Positions 9,502-64,000 of a DNA stretch of 64,000 nt are shown here, piece after piece. Positions within the stretch are counted from its first letter, which is position 1. Every line of letters starts with the position of its first letter. Location of the stretch: contig CM000152.2 of NCBI GenBank assembly GCA_000004695.1, forward strand, positions 1,504,001-1,568,000, written 5' to 3'. Source of the stretch: Dictyostelium discoideum (lineage: Eukaryota). A model generated the notes under the pieces. It was not told the origin of the DNA and searched no databases. It saw only the letters and a program-made list of their open reading frames with translations. Both the position numbers and the translations under genes were made by a program.

Positions 9502-10462
9502 TTTATTTAATATTTTATATTTTAAATGTTTGGATATTAAAATGAAAATAAAAAAAAAAAAAAAAAAAAAAAACACAAAACAAAATTTTAAAAAAAAAAA
9601 AAATTAAAAAAAAATTAAAAAATAATTAAAAAAAAAAAATCTTGTTGTGAAATGGGTGGAAACAATTTATCATAATTTGGAAATTTTAATAATTTATAAT
9701 TTTTATTGTTTCTTTTTTTTTTTTTTATTATTTTATTATTTTATTTTATTTTATTTTATTTTATTTTTATATTTCATAATTTATTGTAAATCTTAATTTT
9801 TAGAAAAAAGCAATTAATTTTTTTTTTTTTTTTTAAAATCTAATTATTTTACCCCATTTTATTTTATCTTATTTATTTATTTTAATTTTAAATTTATTTT
9901 AATGTTTTGTTTAAATTTTGCCCATTTTAATTATTATTATTTTATTTTTATTATTATTTTTTTTTTTTTTATTTTCTTTTTTTTTCTTTTTTTTGGAAAT
10001 TAACTAAGACTGATTTGAAAATAATTTAAATTAAATAATTATCAAATTGTTTATTTAAATTTTCTAAACAAATATTATTTAAATCTAATTCAAAACAAAA
10101 TATTTATGTTTTGTAACTGATTTGATCAAACCATAAATATTTTTAAATTTTTTTTTTTTTTTTTTTTTTATTTTTATTTTTTTTTTATTTTATTTTTTTT
10201 TTAATTTTATTATTTTTTTTTTTTTGACGAGAAAAACGAGTGAATCGTAAAAATTTTTTTTTTTTTTTTTTTTTTTTTTCAGTCATTCAGAAATAAATTA
10301 TTTCATACAAAACTCTCGAGATTTCTCTAAATAAATTCAATTTTAGTAGAACCTCTTATAGTTATTGTTAGAATTTCTTTCTCTATCTATTCTTTTAGGT
10401 TGTCTCTCTTTAATACAATAACAGTTTTTTTAAAAAACTTTCCTTTTAATATATAAATAAAC

Positions 10463-11327
10463 ATGTCTTTCAGAGGTGGTCGTGGTGGTTTTGGCGGTGG
10501 TGATCGTGGTGGCCGTGGAGGTAATTATCATTAAAAAAATAAAAAATAAAAAATAAAATCATAATTAAATTACATTATTATTAACTTGGATTTTTTAAAA
10601 TTTAGGTGGTCGTGGTGGTTTTGGTGGTGGTGACCGTGGTGGCCGTGGCGGTTTTGGCGGAGGCCGTGGTGGTGGTCGTGGTGGTTTTGGTGGTGATCGT
10701 GGTGACCGTGGTGGTTATGCTTCAGGTGAAAATATTGGTATGTATTTATAATTATTAAATTTTAAAAAATACATATGCATATTAACCAAAATCTTTTTTT
10801 TTTATTTTATTTTTTTTTTATTAGAAATTGGTGTTTTCTCTCATGTTTGCGAAGAACAAATTGTTTGTAAATTAACAGCTACTGAACAAGTACCAAAATT
10901 CAATTGTAAAGTTTTATCATCAAGTAAAAATACCATTGGTTCAGTTGATGAAATTTTCGGACCAATCAATAAAGTATTTTTCAGTGTTAAATTAGACAGC
11001 GGTGTCCAAGCTACCTCATTCAAAGAAAACGATAAAATCTTTGTTGATTCAAACTCTGTATTACCAATTAAAATCTTCCTCGAAGAACCAAAACCAATTG
11101 CTAAAGTACCAAAAACACCAGGTGCTGGTGGTGCCGGTAGAGGTGGTCGTGGTGGTGCTAGAGGTGGTTTCGGTGGTGGTCGTGGTGGTGGTGCCGGTAG
11201 AGGTGGTTTCGGTGGTGGTCGTGGTGGTTCTAGAGGTGGTTTCGGTGGTGGTCGTGGTGGTGGTTCCGGCTTCGGTGGCCGTGGTGGTTCTAGAGGTGGT
11301 CGTGGTGGTGGTCGTGGTGGTTTTTAA
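10463..11327 (+). CDS. H/ACA snoRNP subunit GAR1, with Gly/Arg-rich (GAR) domains at both ends. Exons 10463..10520, 10606..10737, 10825..11327.
   Basis: The core 'EIGVFSHVCEEQIVCKLTATEQVPKFNCKVLSSSKNTIGSVDEIFGPINKVFFSVKLDSGVQATSFKENDKIFVDSNSVLPIKIFL' matches the GAR1 family. Both flanks carry RGGRGGFGGG repeats. Donors are GTAATT at 10521 and GTATGT at 10738. Both introns are phase 1. Stop TAA at 11325-11327. Confidence 0.8.
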
Positions 11328-11904
11328 ACAAATTCAAACAATAACAGTAGCGACAATTTAGTTAATCATTAACAACTTTATACAAATATACATCATAAAT
11401 CTCAAAAAAAAAAACATCAAGAATCAACTAATCAATCAAAAACAATTTTAACATGGAAAATAATATTCACACACACAAACTCACTTTTTAAAACTTTTTT
11501 TTTTATAACCTTAAACCAAAAAAAAAAAGTCTCAAACAAACAAACACACCAAAACAATCTAACTTAACCTTAAAAATACTTTTTAATTAAAAAAAAAAAA
11601 TAAATAAAAAAAAAAATAAAATAAAAAATAAAAAAAAATTTTAAAAAATATATAAACACTTTTTTTTTTTTTTTTTGATTATCGTCCAATCAAATTATTT
11701 ATTTCACACACCACAATCTATTTTTTATTTTTTTTTTTTTTTTTTTATTTTTTGGTTTAAGTGGGTGTGGTAATGTAAAATTTCAAAAATGAATTTTTTT
11801 TTTATTTTTTTATTTTTTTACATTTCTGTTAATATCTAATAAATTCAATTAATATATTTTAATATAAATATTTTAGTAGTTGTAATAAATCTAAAATTCA
11901 AGAA

Positions 11905-18415: not shown

Positions 18416-18628
18416 CCATTAATTTCGCTCTGCAAAAAAAAAAAAAAATCAAGAGGTCTTTTAATTTTTTTTTTTTTTTCGAAATCTGATTTTGTTTTAA
18501 AAAAGGTTTCTTCTTAGTTTTTTGGGGAAAGACCGTCTTTTTTTCTTTTTTTTTTAATGTAAAATAAAGTTTTTTTTTTTTTTTTAAAATTTTGTACTTC
18601 ACATAATTTCTTTTTTTTTTTTTATAAT

Positions 18629-19623
18629 ATGATTAGATTTTTATTAAATAGTTTAATTGATGAAGAAGATAATAATAACAATAGTAATAGTAATAATAAT
18701 AATAATAATAAAATAAAAAAAGAAAAAGAAGATAATGAAACATTTGAATTAGTAAAAAATGAATTTTTAAAATTAATTAAAAGTATTGAAGAAACTAAAG
18801 AATCATTATACCAATATGTAAATAACTTTCAAGATGTATTTTTAAATCAAACTAATATTTACAATACTATAAAGAATAATTTTAGAGATGATCATCCACT
18901 TTATCATTATTCAAATCAAGTATTAGTAAATATTTCCAATGTTTTTAAAAATAGGAAAACCAATTTCGAAAAGAATATAGAATCAATTTTAAATTACTTG
19001 GACAAAGCAAATTATTTAAAATTAAAATTAGATAATTTAAATCAATTCCATACAAATATTATTAATAATAATAATAATAATAATCAAACTAATTTAAATA
19101 AAAAAATAATTGAAGAGTATTTAGATTTAAAAGTTTTACTATTTAGTGAACTAAAATCATTTTTTGATGAAAGAGTAACATCTTATGATTTACCTTTAAT
19201 TAATATTCAAATGATTTTTAATATTGTTTACGATGAAATTGGTATGGTTTTTAAAAATAGTTTAGATTTTTTAAAACAAACTAATACTATAAATATAACA
19301 ACTTTAAAAACTGTTTTAAATAGACCAAGTGGTTTTTATTCAACTTCAAAAATTAATAATAATAATTATAATAATAATGATTTTATTTTACCTCCTCATT
19401 TAAATGATTATTCTTCTTATCAAGAATATCAAAAAAAATTAAATCAACCACCACAACCACAACCTCCACAACATATAAATCAACAACAACAACAACAACA
19501 ACCAAATCAAACTCTTAATCAACAAAATCATCATGAAACTCAATTACGACCCCAAAGACAACCACAAAACCAACCAAATAATTTCACTATGTATCCTTTT
19601 GAATTGTACCAACAACCACAACC

Positions 19624-28239: not shown

Positions 28240-28551
28240 TTGTATGAAGTTGGTGGACAAATAATGAAAGAGAATGCAATGGATGAAGCTTTTGCCAATA
28301 AAGAAGGTAATCATTCTCGATTGGCTTTGAAAACATTTGGACAATTGGGTCGCTATAATATTGAACACTATGAAAGATGTCAATCTACTATTTCAAGAGT
28401 TTATAAATATGTTAATAAGGAAAATATTAATGTTTTATATTCATTTCTAATTTGTTGTGAATTATCAGCTTATGCATTCCATGAAAAAAGCTATGGAAGA
28501 ATTTGGTGTAAAGGATCTTTTTTATTTCCATGTCCATTTAACTGCCGATAA
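28240..28551 (+). CDS. Orphan Cys-rich ORF of about 95-103 aa; no recognisable family. May be spurious or a degenerate gene fragment.
   Basis: The ORF reads 'MKENAMDEAFANKEGNHSRLALKTFGQLGRYNIEHYERC...CKGSFLFPCPFNCR' and has relatively high GC. It is flanked by inverted repeats (27741-27791; 28528-28569 overlapping its stop; 28708-28875). Confidence 0.2.
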   Translation: MYEVGGQIMKENAMDEAFANKEGNHSRLALKTFGQLGRYNIEHYERCQSTISRVYKYVNKENINVLYSFLICCELSAYAFHEKSYGRIWCKGSFLFPCPFNCR

Positions 28552-28569
28552 TCATGATGATGGACATGG
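28528..28569. other. Perfect 10-bp inverted repeat 'ccatgtccat'(22 bp)'atggacatgg' overlapping the stop codon of the orphan ORF.
   Basis: Read directly from the sequence. Confidence 0.8.
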
Positions 28570-28705
28570 TGTGAAAATGTTAAAAAATGACCATAGAAGA
28601 GTTTAATTTAGGAATTCAATTATATTTAACTTTTTTTTTTTTCAGATATTTTTGATAATTAAAAAATAATTTCAATTGAAAAACAATAAGAAATTCATTT
28701 ATTTT

Positions 28706-45681: not shown

Positions 45682-47166
45682 CCTCCCATGTGTGTGAATT
45701 TTTTTTATTTTTTTTTTTTATTTTTGGGAAAACAGATTCAAAAATTTTATATGTATTAATTTCACCAATAATTATTAATATAAAAAAAAAAAATAATAAA
45801 ATTATGATTTGATAATAATAATAATAAATCATTGTATGTTTAACTTTTCATAATTGATTAGATTGTTTTGTTTTGTTTTGTTTTTTTTTACATTTTTTAC
45901 CATTGATAAGTTTAATAGATATATACTATTTATGTATATTTTTTAAGAGGTTTCATAAATCTATTATAAAAAATCTCAAAAAAAAAAAAAAGATAATCTA
46001 AAAAGTTAGGTTAAAACAAATTTTATTTTTGGGAAAAATAATATATCTCAACCCACGTTTGGTAATAAAAAAAAAAAAAAAAAAAATTAAAAAAAATATA
46101 AAAAAAAAAATAATATTAATTTTATTTTATTTTTTAAATACATCTCTCCCATACACACCAAAATGGTTTTATCCAATAAAAAATAAAAATTAAAAAATTA
46201 ATGATTAGAAAATAAAAAAAAAAATTGGATATTATTATAAATGACGTAAATTTAAACATTGGGTAATAATCCAAAAATAACAGTGAGAAAAAATAAAAAA
46301 TGGGTTAACTATAACTATAAATATGTTTATTTGTTTTTTTTTCCATTTTTTCCATTTTTTTTTTTTTTTTTCAATAATAAAATTAAATTTTACATTAAAT
46401 AATAATATAATAAAAAAAAAAAAAAAAAATAAAAAAATTAAAAAAAAAAGTAAAGGAAAAATACCTATAAATATTTTAATCATTTTTTTTTTTTAAATGC
46501 CGAGTAGCTCTTTTAACAATCAAAAGAATACAAATACAAATAAAAGTACTAGAGACCTAAAAAAGAAGAAATCTTCAAAATTTAATTTATTTATTTATAT
46601 AAAAACTTGTATTTCCAATAATGACTTTAATAAGTAATTATTTAAAATTAAAAAATTAAAAAAAAAAAAAAAATAATTTATACTAAAATTAAAAAAAAAA
46701 AAAAAAAATAGAATTTTTGTCAAAATTGGTAAATAAAAATAATGATGAAAATAATGGATCAATTTCAATGAATAGAATTGAAAGTAGAAGTAGTATTAAT
46801 ACATCAGAGATTGATATTTTTAATTATAATACTATATCAAGTTGTAACAATACTCCTCAACCATCACCATATCACCAAAATAGATTCAATCAACCAAATT
46901 TTTTTGAAGAAATTAAAAGAGAAGATGATACAAGATTATTGGCATATTCTTTATAATTTTTAATAAAAATCTAAATGCATATAGAAATTCATTATTAATA
47001 ATTTTTTTTATTTATTATTATTATTTAATTAATAAAAATTAAAAATTAAATATAATAATTTAAAAAATTATGGTATAATTTGAGATATTCTGTAAATTAT
47101 TTTCTATTTTTGGAATTATTTAATCAAAAAAAATTGGAATTTAAAAGTGTTTAAAAATAAGTTTGG

Positions 47167-47197
<31 letters not shown>

Positions 47198-47324
47198 TTA
47201 GAAGTCGAAATTTGAATTTTTATTTTTCATTTTTTTTTTTTATTTTTTTTTTTATTTTTTTTTTTTTTAACCCTTCATTGTATTATATTTATACATATAT
47301 ATAATTAACATTTCAAAATAAGAA

Positions 47325-48389
47325 ATGTTTCAAACAAGTGGACTATTCGGACAAGCCTCTACTACAACAGGTGGTGGTTTGTTTGGTACAGCAGTAACAC
47401 CAACATCAACTGGTGGTAGTGGATTATTTGGTACAAGTACATCAATAGCTCCAACATCAACTGGTGGTGGATTATTTGGCACAAGTACAGCAGTAACACC
47501 AACATCAACTGGTGGGGGTGGATTATTTGGTACAAGTACAGCAGTAGCACCAACATCAACTGGTGGTGGTGGATTATTTGGTGGTGGTGGTGGTGGAGGT
47601 CTTACATCAAGTATTGGTCCACAAGGTGGTGGTGGTCTATTTGGAAGTACAACATTACCAACATCAACAAGTGGTAGTGGTCTATTTGGTGGTCAATCTT
47701 CAATTGGATTTGGTCAACCCAATAGTGGTAGTGGTAGTGTTAGTGGTGGTCTATTCGGCTCTACTTCAGTACAACAACCACAACAACAACAACAACAACC
47801 ACAACAACCTTTAATTACAGAATCAACTAAATTCTCTGATTTACCACCACAATTAAAGAATGAATTACAAATTTTAAAGTATGTACAAGTAAATATATCA
47901 ATTAATTAACAACAACAATAATATATTAATAATTTATTTAATTTTTAAAATGATAGTAAAATGATTATAAATAATAATTCATTAATGAATTCATTTTCAA
48001 ATTATGATACAAAGATAAATGAAATATCGATTGGGTTGGATCAAGTTGCATCAGTTATGGATAATTTATTTAACAATTTCGATATTCATATTCAATCATT
48101 TAAATATTTAGAAGAATCATTAGCAAAACCATTGAATTCAGTGAATGAACAAGTTCATCTTTTATCAACACAATTTCATTCACCATTTTCACAAGCAAGA
48201 CCTTCAAAAGAGATGGAAATTATCGTTGATAGTTTAGTTGAAAAAATTGATCGTATTAAACAAACTATATTATGTGTTACTCCAACTAATAAATCACAAT
48301 CTCAAAATTTATCATTTCAAGAATGTAATATATCAATATCATATAAAAAAAAAAAAAAAAACTAATACATATATAAATATAAATATTAA

Positions 48390-48425
<36 letters not shown>

Positions 48426-49266
48426 CTCTCTTTTATTTATAGCATTTATATCAACATTACAATCAAATCAAATTATATTAAGAAATTTAGCATATATAGT
48501 GGATAATTTAGTAACAGAATTAGAAAGACATAAAAAACACTTTTTATTATATAAAAAAAAATATTATAATCAAAATTATAATCCATTTCTAAAACAACCA
48601 AAATTAAATGAAAAAACAGATTATCATGGTAGTAGTAGTCTTCATCATTCTCATTTTTCACAATCATCAAATCTTTTATCATCACAATCATCATTATTTG
48701 GATCTTCAATGTATGGAAGACAATCTCAACAACAACAACAACAACAAAACCCACAACAATCTCAATATTTACAATCATCAACATTTCAACCAATACAAAC
48801 ATCAACATCTTTTTTTAATCCAACATCAACAACAACAACAACGTCATTTGGCTTAACCAATAATAATAATAATAATAATAGTTTGGCAAGTAATAATAGT
48901 AGTGGTGGTAGTAGTGGTTCTAGTTTAGGTAGTTTAGGTAGTTTAGGTAGTGGTAGTGGAAGTGGATTATTTGGGAGTACAGCTACAAATAATAGTTTAG
49001 GTAGTACTTCAAGTAGTGGTAGTACAAGTAGCTCAATTGGTGGATCAAATTCAATCGTTATACCACCATTAGCAATTGGATCAATCACTAATAATAACAG
49101 TGGTGGTGGTTTATTTGGGAGTTCTAACTCATCATCAAACTCTTTAAATTCATTATCAACCTCATCAAGTAATCTCTTTGGACCACCTCAAACACCAACT
49201 TTATCAGGACAAGGTTCTACACTTGGCTCTGTGGTTTTTCAATCTCTGGTTCAGCTTCAAATTTAG
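47325..49266 (+). CDS. FG-nucleoporin of the Nup58/Nup49 type: N-terminal GLFG repeats, a central helical domain and C-terminal FG/GLFG repeats. Exons 47325..47878, 47957..48324, 48443..49266.
   Basis: There are eight or more 'GLFG' repeats in exon 1. The central region 'IGLDQVASVMDNLFNNFDIHIQSFKYLEESLAKPLNSVNEQVHLLS...' is helical. 'GLFGST', 'GGGLFGSS' and 'NLFGPP' lie near the C-terminus. Donors are GTATGT at 47879 (phase 2) and GTAATA at 48325 (phase 1). The second intron carries (CA)13(TC)5. Confidence 0.65.
48396..48431. repeat. (CA)13 followed by (TC)5 dinucleotide repeat in intron 2 of the FG-nucleoporin gene.
   Basis: Read directly from the sequence. GC-containing dinucleotide microsatellites are uncommon in this AT-rich context. 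Confidence 0.9.
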
Positions 49267-49378
49267 ATACACCAAATAGAAAGAAAAATTCATTAAATTC
49301 TTCAAAAAGATAATTGATTTGGGTGGGGGAATAGTATTTTAATAATAATCAAAGACATGAAAAAAAAAAAAAAGAATG

Positions 49379-49411
<33 letters not shown>

Positions 49412-49554
49412 AATAATTAAATAATAAAATAATAAAAATAAATAAAAAAGAATCAATTAACTTTTGAAATAATTAAATAAAATAAATAAAATTTATTATA
49501 AACAATTATTATATAATTAAATTTAACATTTTTATATTGATGATTTATTTATAT

Positions 49555-50042
49555 TTATTTATCAGAATTTAAAACTAAAAATGCTAAATTTCCAGCGAAA
49601 TTATTTGATTGTACAACTTTATTATCAGAGGTTAAAATGTATTGATCACCAAGTGGCATTATACCAGAGTTGTCACTAATTTCTGGTATAATATTTGATT
49701 TTCCAGTTTTTGTATTAATTAATTGAGCTGAAAATTGTTTAAAGAATAAATAAGATATTGGTTTTGGTCTACCAATAAAACATGTTGCTACACCATTTTC
49801 AGTTGTTAAAAATATTTTCCAATTTTCATTTGTTCCTCCTGAAAAAAAAAAATTAAAAATATAATGATGATTGATGTATTAATAAATAAAAAAAAATAAA
49901 AAAAATAAAAAAAAGTATAATAAATTATTTTTTTAATATAAATAATAAATATAAATATCATACCTGTTGCAGCAAAACTAAAAATACATTTATAATTTTC
50001 CTAAAATAAATTAAATAAATTAAATTAAATTAATTAAACAGT

Positions 50043-50073
<31 letters not shown>

Positions 50074-50260
50074 TCATAATTAAAAAATATTATTAATAAT
50101 AAATTATACTACTACTACCACAACCTACTAAAACTAATTCAACAGTATCTAAATTACCTTCTGGTTTAATATTAAATTCTTTATCAATTTCTTCAGACAA
50201 GGAATTTGTAACCATTAAAAAAATAGTACAAAGAATTAATAAATATTTTAAAAAAGTCAT
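49555..50260 (-). CDS. Small secreted Cys-containing protein, about 150 aa. Three exons on the minus strand: 50260..50129, 50000..49964 (a 37-nt micro-exon), 49838..49555.
   Basis: The signal peptide is 'MTFLKYLLILCTIFLMVTNSLS'. The later exons read 'ENYKCIFSFAATG' and 'GTNENWKIFLTTENGVATCFIGRPKP...'. Minus-strand donors are GTAGGT and GTATGA; acceptors are TTTTAG and TTTCAG. Only one phase combination stays open to the TAA stop. The family is unknown. Confidence 0.5.
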
Positions 50261-50448
50261 TATTATTGTTATTGTTATTGGTATTGTTATTGTTGTTGTT
50301 GTTTTTATGGTAGTTTATTATTAAATTGTTATTTAAAAATATAATGGTTTGATGATGACAGACAATGGCACCACAGAGTGTGAAAATTTTTAATTTTTCA
50401 TTTTTTTTTTTTTTCATTTTTTTTTTTTTAAATTTTTTTTTTTTTTTT

Positions 50449-50489
<41 letters not shown>

Positions 50490-50714
50490 AAAAATGTTTA
50501 TCCAAAAACAAAATTTTTTATTTTAAAAAAAAAAATTATTTCAAACACACACATCCACACCACCCATTCATATATCCAAAAAAAAAAAAAAAAAAAAATA
50601 TAAAATAAAAAAGAAAAAAAAAAAAAACTATTCATTTTTCATTTGTTAATTATCCTTGTTAATTAAGGGATACAATATAAAATAATTTTCAATAACAAAT
50701 TAAAATAAATAATA

Positions 50715-53635
<2,921 letters not shown>

Positions 53636-54737
53636 AAATATTGTATATAATATAAAAATTATATAAACTACTTCAACCACTACTAGTATCAAATAAACAA
53701 TAAATAACAACAATAAAATAATTTAACAATAACCAAAAATAATTAATTAAAATTTAATGTATTAAAAAAAAAAAAAAAAAAAAGAAATAAAAAAATATTT
53801 ATAATATCATTTTTTTTTTTTTTTTTTTTATATACAAAAATATGGTTGATACCACAAATTAATTTTATTTTTATTTTTTTTTTTATTTTATTAATTCATT
53901 TTAATTGGTTGTTTTATATTATTATCATTATTATTCTATACCCCACATTGAAAGTTGTATAAAAAAAAAAAGTTGTATAATAAAAAAATAATAATATAAA
54001 TAAATAAATAAATATATTAAAATAGGAAAGAAAAAAAAAACAACAATAACAACAATAAAATAGAATCCCAATAAATTATAGCAACAAAATTTTTATATAT
54101 CTTGTTGAATGAGAAAAATAATTAATGATAACAACAACAAACAACAACAAACAACAAAAAACAACAACAATTCAATCCACCTCAATAATAATAATGATAA
54201 TGATAATAATAATTATAAAAATAAAAATAATAAAAAATAATAAAAATAATAATAACAATTACTATTTTGGATTGTGTAAGTGATAAAGACAATTGTGAAA
54301 GTGGGTGAAATTTTTCGTATTATTTATAAATAATTGAACACTCTATAATAACACCACTAACCAACCCTCTCAATAATAATATTATTAATAATAAAAACAA
54401 ATTTTTATATTTTAATTTTTATTTTTTTTTATTATTAAAAAAAATAAAAAAAACAATGATATTGATAATAGTGATAGTGATACACTCAATGCATTGTTTT
54501 GTTTATCATTAATATTGAACATGTATTTTTTTTTTAATCTCTAACCCTATTTTTAGCCTATTAGATCGGTTTAAATTATTAAAACAAATAATAATTATTT
54601 GGTAATTATGAGTGTTTAGAAAGAGAATAAAAAATTTTTTAATAATTTAAGGAAAATAACACACAAACACACTATCACCCACTCACATTATCACACACAC
54701 ATTTTCAAGCACACAATATTAACTCCCTCTAATTGGG

Positions 54738-54794
<57 letters not shown>

Positions 54795-55234
54795 CTTTGT
54801 CACATTATCATTATCATTATTAATTATAATTTATTAATAAATTTTTATCTTTTTTTTTTTTTTTTTTTTTTATTTTTTTTTATTTTTTTATTTAATTATT
54901 ATAATCAAAAAAATTGTTATTCTCATCATCAATAAAAAAATTTTAAAAAAAACAATTTTATCATCATTTCCATTTATATCCTATAATTTTAATAGAGAGG
55001 TGTATTGTCTGTTTTTGAAAGTGTGTAATTCATAATTATTGTTTTTATTTTTTTTTATTATTTTTTTATTATTTTTTTTATATTACTATATATTTTTTTT
55101 TTTTTTTTTTTTTTTTATAATATTTAATTTTTTTTATATTATAAATTATTTTATTCACCACCCATCAATAATAAAAATCAATAAGTAAAATAATTACATT
55201 TATCTTATTTATTTACCCTATATTAAAAATTTTA

Positions 55235-55272
<38 letters not shown>

Positions 55273-55275
55273 AAA

Positions 55276-55312
<37 letters not shown>

Positions 55313-55804
55313 ATGATAATTTGTAAATAAATAGTATATAATAAATATATGTGTATATATTTATTATCAATAATTTTCAAAATGTATGTTTTTCTTTTTA
55401 ATTACTATTTTTTTTTTTTTTTTAATTTTTTTTTTTTTTTTTTTTTTCTTCTTATACCCCATAAAAGTATTATTTGTTTTTGCCTTTGTTTTTTTTTTGT
55501 GAAAATAACACACACTACTACCCTGTTATAACCATTTAAAATATATTTTAATAAAAATGGAATTAGTATTTCGAAAAAAATACTTCAAATGTTTTTTATT
55601 CAAATAATATAGTCAAAAAATATTTTTTTATTTATTTTGTTTTTATTAAAATTTTTTTTTTTTTTTTTTTTTTGAAATAAATGTATTTTATATATATCTC
55701 ATTGTTAAAAATAAAAATAAATACTAACCATTTCTATTATTATTATTTTTTTTTATAACAAAATTAGAAATTTTATTTATTTATTTATTTTTGTATAAAA
55801 AATA

Positions 55805-59341
<3,537 letters not shown>

Positions 59342-59774
59342 ATAATTAAATAAAAAAAAAAAAGAATTAATAATAAATAAACAAATAAAAAAATGAATAA
59401 ATAAAAAAAAAAATAAAAAAAAAAGATGAATTTTATCTATTTTTAAATTTTTAGGGTAGTTTAATTATTTAATTTGTTTTTATTTTTTTATTTATTTTGA
59501 AAAATATCTATATAAAAAAATATATGTAAATTTTAAAAATAAATTAAATAAATATGAAAAAAAATAAAAAAAATAAAAAAAAAAGTGTCAAGATTAAGAA
59601 AAAAATGAAACAATTGTTTTTTTTGATTTTTTTTTATTTTTATTCTTTTTTTATTTTTTTTTTTTTTAATTTTTTAATTTTTTTTTTTAATTTTGATCAA
59701 TTTGAAATTAATTTTAAAAAAAAAAAAATTCTTTTCATTTATTTAAAATTCAAATTATCAACAACATGGCAGAA

Positions 59775-59811
<37 letters not shown>

Positions 59812-60577
59812 TTTCAACACCACCACATCAAAAACCACATTTAACAACTGGTTTAAGAACTTCAAGTTCTGGTTTATTAATGGATAAAAGAAGACAAGAT
59901 GAAGAGTATGTGTTTAAATATTATTTCATTTTTTTTTTTCATTTTTTTTTTTTTTTTATTTATTACAATACCTTTTTTTTTTTTTTTTTTTTTCTTTTTA
60001 TTTATATTATTTTATTATTATTTTTTTTTTTTTATATTGTAATTTGTTATTGATAAATATTTTTTTTTGTTTTGTTTTGTTTAATTTTTTTTTTTTTATT
60101 TATTTTTTTTTTATTTTTTTTATTTTTTTATTTTCATCAGTATTATCCTTTTTTGTGCAAATAGTGGTTAATGAACCCACATAAAAAAACATGATGAATA
60201 TTTTTTATAATCCCTTTAAGATTATAAAAAAAAAAAAATAATAATTAAAACCATTTATATTTATTGTCATTGTTGATTATTAGTATTTATATTTAATAAA
60301 TGGTATTTTATTAGTTGGTCTATTTATTATTTAACCCTAAAATAAAAAAAAAAAAATAAAAAAATTATAACAGTAATAATCAATAAAATAATATAAATAA
60401 AATAAAACAAATAATATAAATAAAATAATACAAATAAAATAATATAAATAATTTAAGCAAAAAATAATATAAATAATATTAATAAAAAAAAATACTATTT
60501 AAACTTGATATTAATTTTTTTCTTTAAATTTTTTTTTTTCTTTATTTTTTTTCTTTAATTTTTTTTTTTTTTTTTAA

Positions 60578-62821
<2,244 letters not shown>

Positions 62822-62939
62822 ATAAAATAAAAGAAAATAAAAACAAAATAAAAAAAACAAATAAAAAACTTATAATTAAAATAGAAATCTTTTTTTATTC
62901 ATTTTGAGTTAAGTTGATATCCAAACTTTATCATGTTTA

Positions 62940-63066
<127 letters not shown>

Positions 63067-63099
63067 TTATTGTTTTTATTATTATTATAATTATATTTA

Positions 63100-64000
63100 C
63101 TAAGAAAAAAAAAAAATTTGGGTTTATTCTATTTAAATTATAAAAATGTATATTACTTGTTTTGGTCCTTTAATAAATAAGAGTTTTTTAAATTAATATT
63201 TTTTTATATATTTAATAGATTTTGGATGTCATTTTTTTTATTTTTTATACATTTTTTATTTTCTTTTTGGGTTAAGGTGTATAATTATTAAGTGGGGTTA
63301 TAGTTTGTTGTTGTGGTTTTGGGCCTTTAAACATTCTATTACCACTATTTCCTTGAAAATTATTATTATTATTGTTATTTTTAAGGTATTATTCTTTTTT
63401 AATTTAAATTATCGGATAGAATTTTAATTTAATTAAAATATAAAATTGTTATCATAATTATTAATTTTTATTAAGATATTGCTGTTGGAATGGTACTACG
63501 AAGGAGTCAGATGATGATTAATTAAATGAATTGGTAGAAGGAGATATTTTTGTCCTGATTTTGAAAATTTATAACAAAATGATTTCGTTAATTATTTGCC
63601 GATTTTTTTTTTTATTTTTAGAGTAATAATTATTATTCTAGAATAGCTAGTTTGTAACGCTTGTTGGTTAGCTTCGAGTATGAGAGTTTTTCATCTATGT
63701 TCGGTTCGTCGCTATACAGTTGATTGCATATCCAAACCTAAATTTTATGCAATATTAACGCTTTTATTTTTCTATATGCTGAATGTTCTGGATAAGTCAT
63801 AGTTTACACATTTATATCCCCATTCGAAGTATTCTTTATGGAATCTAAGGTTTGCGTAATCTATGTTAATTTCATGATCCATCTTCATGTTTGGAGGCAT
63901 TATTGTTTTAATTGTGTTGGTGGTTTTATTGTTGGATCTAGTTATTTGGTGTTTTCAATTTTTTCTGCGGCATGTGGTAATGTATATAAAGTTTTTCAAA
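63100..64000. other. Compositionally distinct non-coding segment: higher GC, G/T-rich words, few homopolymers, and no ORF of 60 aa or more in any frame. It is a candidate transposon/LTR fragment or ncRNA locus and continues past the window end.
   Basis: Words such as 'ggttaaggtgtataattattaagtggggttatagtttgttgttgtggttttgggcc', 'gcttcgagtatgagag' and 'gttcggttcgtcgctatacag' contrast with the 85-90% AT intergenic DNA elsewhere in the window. Confidence 0.3.

Follow-up and report, generated by a model that had tools for sequence, protein, structure and literature searches.

The window is the whole 64,000-nucleotide stretch of Dictyostelium discoideum nuclear DNA that was analyzed. It is very AT-rich, and its gene structure is dictyostelid-like. 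The interval 63100–64000, which closes the window, had been flagged in a preliminary description as compositionally aberrant, and it is treated here together with the adjoining gene. The features are as follows, in window coordinates.

62172–62821, plus strand: last exon of a gene with a cytosolic 5′-nucleotidase domain (PF05761), convergent with the transposon remnant
62940–63075, no strand: (ATT)n microsatellite in the 3′ flank of the 5′-nucleotidase gene, with 34 perfect units and more after one interruption
63100–63269, no strand: ordinary AT-rich intergenic spacer with homopolymer runs (GC 8–18%)
63270–63352, minus strand: unexplained island of 83 bp reading ..FQGNSGNRMFKGPKPQQQTITPLNNYTP*, with host-like codon usage and a 20-mer of TRE3 ORF1
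63440–63521, minus strand: putative decayed 3′ UTR and A-rich tail, placed by GC content; the motif agatgatga of the preliminary description lies here on the opposite strand
63522–63633, minus strand: probable, more decayed continuation of ORF2, based on short matches and frame continuity, with a T11/A11 run at 63603–63613
63634–64000, minus strand: degenerate C-terminal part of a TRE3-type ORF2 by blastn and tblastn, continuing past the window end

The 5′-nucleotidase gene is also called in the syntenic locus L006 (13962–17017), its introns are canonical GT..AG, and the best match in the protein search with the exon was 75% identical. The last intron (61982–62171) contains a long (AAT)n tract, and the complementary (ATT)n at 62940–63075 follows the last exon, which is thus bracketed by the two.

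According to the preliminary description, the interval begins after an (ATT)n microsatellite, has a markedly higher GC content and few homopolymers, and lacks any ORF of 60 aa or more. The microsatellite is indeed in that position. The GC content of 63100–64000 is 24%, compared with a median of 20% for the 350-nt windows that served as the window-wide reference. The higher GC applies to 63650–64000, with 32% (approximately the 90th percentile, typical of exons), but not to 63100–63650, where an ordinary value of 19% is close to the median. The scarcity of homopolymers is likewise limited to ~63630–64000; runs of A12, T7, T8, and T11 occur elsewhere in the interval, at 63105, 63199, 63232, and 63603, respectively. 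The statement on ORFs was confirmed, as the longest complete ORF in 63100–64000 encodes 42 aa and none reaches 60 aa. One open frame of 74 codons on the plus strand (63796–64020) crosses the window edge and terminates at a stop codon at 64020 in the syntenic sequence. This frame is antisense to the transposon ORF, and its codon scores are negative.

Coding signal was evaluated with a codon log-likelihood model trained on 24 long open frames from the window, in which a known exon was positive in its own frame. Every frame of 63600–64000 was strongly negative (−29 to −39 bits per 300 nt). Among the 300-nt windows with a GC fraction of at least 0.29 (n = 248), the best coding score was below 5 in 10, clustered at five places, and it was clearly negative at three of the five. 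One of these is 63600–64000; the other two are 10351–10700, in an RGG-repeat gene with biased codons, and 28301–28600, which is frameshifted and pseudogene-like. Being GC-rich yet codon-negative in all frames, 63600–64000 resembles an exon in composition but lacks a reading frame. The open segments of the flagged region, scanned one by one, gave no Pfam match, and a self-BLAST detected no second copy of the region inside the 64-kb window, only low-complexity matches.

The two other places are worth a separate description. At 10465–10740, exons for a Gly/Arg-rich RGG-repeat N terminus (MSFRGGRGGFGGGDRGGRGG..) are written in GGT/CGT-biased codons and interrupted by short introns, and the generic codon model scored most of this as non-coding. 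The segment 28301–28600 has 29% GC and a protein-like reading (..NAMDEAFANKEGNHSRLALKTFGQLGRYNIEHYERCQS..) broken by stops and frameshifts; it was scored as non-coding and is possibly a pseudogene.

The origin of the GC-rich part was indicated by homology. When the open segments of all six frames were joined into one peptide and used as the query, the sole protein match was P0033, an RVT_1 protein of 503 aa from Dictyostelium cf. discoideum. [quoted passage not shown] In blastn, the minus strand from 63999 to 63634 aligned with positions 11405–11771 of the P0033 locus (L001) at 79% identity over 369 nt (E 2e-85); matches at relaxed scores were AT-rich noise only and were set aside. In tblastn, the AX4 protein DDB_G0285835 (P0034) matched the window with an E value of 4e-35 in two pieces lying in two frames. 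Its residues 473–546 correspond to 63999–63778, and residues 546–593 correspond to 63779–63636 in the other frame. Each piece contains one in-frame stop (TGA at 63957–63955 and TAG at 63740–63738, respectively), and the frameshift is located near 63779.

An intact ORF2 of 1234 aa in the syntenic locus served as a further reference. The remnant, joined to its continuation in L006, aligned with residues 1003–1172 of this protein at 58% identity (E 9e-50), and the part inside the window alone corresponds to approximately residues 1052–1172. The homologous stretch is the last ~170 residues of ORF2, downstream of a Cys/His motif (..CMLCNEDPYGHLFFKCK..). This motif is situated just past the window end, and the window keeps only the part C-terminal to it. 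The total length of the remnant is ~0.65 kb, of which ~0.48 kb is inside the window. TRE3 elements have two ORFs, and here ORF1 and most of ORF2 are missing because of a 5′ truncation at approximately ORF2 residue 1000. This is the usual state of LINE-like copies and is no argument against a TRE3 origin. The protein identity of the remnant is 58–61% to the abundant type of its intact neighbor and 76% to the degenerate copy in L001. The lower value for the neighbor (59–61% versus 76%) indicates that the remnant is an older copy and belongs to a different TRE3 subfamily.

The 3′ part of the remnant is more decayed. After the reading ..KLAILE, two stop codons (63635–63630) mark the end of strong homology. 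The same frame continues throughout to ..NISFYQFI*, where the stop-equivalent TAA is at 63524–63522; intact copies read ..NIISFDQFI*. This continuation is ~19 codons shorter than in an intact copy. Short DNA matches were found at exactly the equivalent position in three other copies, such as L002 7066–7090 (88% over 25 nt, E 0.01) and L001 11918–11945 (82% over 28 nt, E 0.12), and the score of the best short match was reached by 1 of 300 shuffled sequences. As judged from these alignments, the ORF2 homology probably extends, weakly, to the stop-equivalent at 63522. When the sequence 3′ of 63634 was compared with the 3′ UTRs of four other copies, only the core at the end of ORF2 was recognizable. 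Past the stop-equivalent, there are short A-rich runs only, and the putative 3′ UTR does not align to its relatives. The GC content is 26% at 63450–63549 and drops to 12–16% below ~63450. A clean poly(A) tail and a target-site duplication of the remnant were not found, and its 3′ boundary is placed only to within ~60–100 bp.

The sequence beyond position 64000 was read from L006, a locus in another assembly of the species (GCA_054883475.1, chromosome CM142509.1) that was retrieved with the single-exon ORF at 55805–59338 of the window; everything said here about sequence past the window end refers to this assembly. L006 is 99.55% identical to 45805–64000 over 18.2 kb, and the last 1171 nt are 100% identical. 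Given this identity, L006 can stand in for what follows the window, as found in a related strain. Transposon sequences of the minus strand fill the next 5 kb past the window end. The order on that strand, starting from the far side, is ORF1, the intact ORF2, a UTR of ~105 nt, a poly(A) run of ~40, a short spacer, and the old remnant. An intact TRE3 with the same orientation as the remnant thus comes first, and the remnant stands behind its poly(A). The intact ORF2 (L006 22875–19171) contains an RVT_1 domain (E 1e-33) and a weak but full-length Exo_endo_phos match; its domains follow the order APE, RT, Cys/His. ORF1 overlaps ORF2, and the 5′ end of the element runs off L006. The remnant begins ~150 bp past the window end, and it is split by an insertion of 620 bp (L006 18351–18970, equivalent to 64155–64774); it resumes at L006 18350, equivalent to 64154. 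The insertion has inverted arms of 76 nt (18452–18527 and 18901–18976, 93% complementary) and an A-run at one end, and it is bordered on both sides by a 12-nt direct repeat (TTTTAATAAACC). Inside it, an ORF of 130 aa is only 34–42% identical to the C terminus of TRE3 ORF2. This architecture is atypical of a LINE-like fragment.

The preliminary description had proposed looking beyond 64000 for a reverse-transcriptase ORF and for a nearby tRNA gene. The former is present as the intact ORF2. As for the latter, none was found by ARAGORN in the 64-kb window or within the 5.3 kb of L006 past its end. The expected place for such a gene is farther out, on the 5′ side of the intact TRE3.

TRE3 stands for the 3′ type of tRNA-gene-targeted retroelement. 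TRE3 elements are non-LTR (LINE-like) retrotransposons with two ORFs, the domain order APE, RT, and zinc finger in ORF2, short UTRs, and a poly(A) tail (PMC5006619, PMC5633606). They are positioned ~100 bp downstream of tRNA genes, whereas TRE5 elements are positioned ~50 bp upstream (PMC5006619, PMC5633606). TRE elements make up ~3.6–3.7% of the D. discoideum genome, and at least one TRE is present at 61% of the tRNA genes (PMC5006619, PMC5633606). Four of the loci with relatives of the remnant have a tRNA or tRNA-like gene in front of the element, in each case with the element in the orientation of the tRNA.

L001: tRNA-Pro, with a related element starting 72 bp after it
L002: tRNA-Leu, with a related element starting 41 bp after it
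L003: tRNA-like gene, with a related element starting 116 bp after it
L005: tRNA-Val, with a full-length copy ~100 bp after it; the ORF2 start is ~1 kb downstream, which leaves room for ORF1

The intact relatives end with 25–40 A residues following a UTR of 100–185 nt. Two further observations were made at the 3′ ends of these copies. In the unrelated loci L001 (12150–12310) and L005 (7600–7770), a conserved segment of ~170 nt (..GGGTTATAGAACACTCAACTTCAAACAACATTACAC..) follows the poly(A) of TRE3 and has a second A-run at its end. It resembles a further short repeat element or a 3′ end of composite structure. In L002 (6966–7100), the poly(A) of a young TRE3 is immediately followed by an older 3′ end of the subfamily found in the window (..TATCTCCTTTAACCAATTCATCTAA..). 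This layout, with a young copy ahead of an old remnant, matches that of the window locus.

Between the remnant and the 5′-nucleotidase gene, the 83-bp island stands out. The codon model gives it +20 bits per 90 nt, and ~1% of the windows outside long ORFs score this high; the island is short and rich in Q codons. The G/T-rich motif noted in the preliminary description is present at 63303–63335 and is the reverse complement of island sequence. A 20-mer on the minus strand (CCAAAACCACAACAACAAAC, 63303–63322) also occurs, without a mismatch, ~5 kb away at L006 23329–23348, inside ORF1 of the intact TRE3. No other such match is present in the window or the six loci searched, and none of 500 shuffled sequences scored as high in the local alignment. 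The island may be a fragment of a still older TRE3 ORF1. It also has an acceptor-like ttttcaag/G and a stop codon, and could in principle be part of an unannotated transcript starting in the remnant, as a short terminal exon or a micro-ORF, rather than debris. We consider this very improbable. No usable donor site was found upstream of the island, and no gene is called there in the syntenic assembly. Such a transcript would represent a transposon-derived or transposon-driven chimeric gene. The remaining sequence is unremarkable. The spacer at 63100–63269 showed no similarity beyond low complexity to any of the fetched loci in blastn and tblastx, and tblastx of 63100–63560 against all loci gave nothing significant. 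Except for the island, 63100 to ~63500 is normal spacer, AT-rich and separating the remnant from the convergent 5′-nucleotidase gene.

Taken together, the minus strand of ~63520–64000 is, on the sequence comparisons above, very probably the 3′ end of an old, dead, 5′-truncated non-LTR retrotransposon of the TRE3 type. Several other explanations have to be weighed against this assignment. One of them is a small spliced protein-coding gene on the minus strand with a 65-aa product, running from an ATG at 63900 through 31 codons, a 70-nt intron (GTAAAC..TTTAG), and 34 codons to a stop at 63635 and an A-rich signal. An A/C-rich leader and an AATAATG start context precede it, and the conceptual splice restores the frame. 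Both “exons,” however, are colinear pieces of TRE3 ORF2, and the model was dropped for this reason. The apparent intron is a frameshifted part of the same ORF, and its GC content of 27% is unlike that of an intron. Moreover, the codon scores are negative in the frames used, the only homologues are transposon ORFs, and the syntenic assembly calls no gene there. The existence of this gene is thus very unlikely.

A noncoding RNA gene is about equally unlikely. It could take the form of a C/D-box snoRNA at 63509–63558, a miRNA-like hairpin at 63797–63866, or a longer structured RNA, and the motifs agatgatga (63509–63517) and ctga (63555–63558), both of which are present, had already been noted in the preliminary description as too close together for a canonical C/D snoRNA. 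C/D-box snoRNAs have a C box near the 5′ end, a D box near the 3′ end, and a terminal stem, and they are typically 70–100 nt long. The window likewise has RUGAUGA-like and CUGA motifs on the plus strand (63511–63517 and 63555–63558), but these boxes are ~38 nt apart, and the sequences flanking them form no terminal stem in the minimum-free-energy fold. No Rfam family reached its threshold anywhere in the window; with E values up to 10, only mir-1 appeared, a weak match (E 0.045) with 23 bits against a gathering score of 45.6. The folding z-scores were +0.77 and −0.17 for the two strands of 63630–64000, −0.31 for the box region, and −1.8 for the hairpin, which is no better than shuffled sequence, and all of these features lie inside transposon-derived DNA, where the two boxes are antisense to the end of ORF2 and the 3′ UTR region. 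The suggestion of an RNA gene is not supported. As to the transposon or LTR fragment proposed in the preliminary description, the transposon part stands for ~63520–64000, and TRE was on its list of candidates. The long terminal repeat, or the terminal repeat of an LTR, DIRS, or DNA transposon, was suggested by compositional impression only and has hardly any probability left. What the sequence matches is ORF2 coding sequence from a non-LTR element that has APE and RT, two ORFs, and a poly(A) tail, and the reading as an LTR or terminal repeat is wrong for that reason; in addition, the sequence has no second copy in the window. Equally remote is the possibility that a single-copy gene just past the window has its ordinary promoter or 5′ UTR here, the finding that was to speak against a mobile element. 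The plus-strand open frame crossing the window edge would fit it, but that frame ends at 64020 and is scored as non-coding, the following 5 kb are minus-strand transposon sequence, and the sequence belongs to a multi-copy family.

Here, we propose how the TRE3 remnant may have come to its present position. Target-primed reverse transcription would have created the copy downstream of a tRNA gene located beyond the available sequence. The insertion event itself presumably left it without its 5′ portion, the usual outcome for LINE-like elements. Younger TRE3 copies that arrived at this tRNA target may then have displaced it outward. Since its insertion, it has probably decayed neutrally, with no function of its own. 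The higher GC content and the few homopolymers of 63650–64000 are explained by the former coding sequence. Considering the abundance of TRE elements in the genome and at tRNA genes, it is to be expected that a cluster of nested TRE3 copies includes a decayed 3′ fragment. The remnant is an element of a known kind and ordinary genomic debris, not a new gene or RNA. With this, the compositional anomaly is accounted for, and the 65-aa “gene,” the snoRNA-like boxes, and the miRNA-like match become by-products of a dead ORF. The biological weight of the remnant is small; the locus serves as an example of older copies being pushed outward by repeated insertion at a single tRNA target, toward neighboring genes that stay undisrupted.

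The dead-on-arrival copies of mammalian L1 are comparable to the remnant. L1 is likewise a LINE with APE and RT that inserts by target-primed reverse transcription, and its copies are mostly 5′-truncated 3′ ends subject to neutral decay. L1 differs in having no tRNA-gene targeting, and the sequence relationship is confined to the RT and APE domains. With the TRE3 elements (TRE3-A to TRE3-D; Szafranski/Glockner/Winckler), the remnant has in common the ORF2 homology, the 5′ truncation, and the clustering with other TRE3 insertions, whereas it differs from them in being frameshifted, ridden with stops, and devoid of a recognizable poly(A) tail or target-site duplication. TRE5 elements, such as TRE5-A/DRE, belong to the same tRNA-gene-targeted LINE-like superfamily and have the same domain order in ORF2. 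They are set apart by position, as they are found upstream (~50 bp) of tRNA genes, whereas the relatives of the remnant are found downstream.
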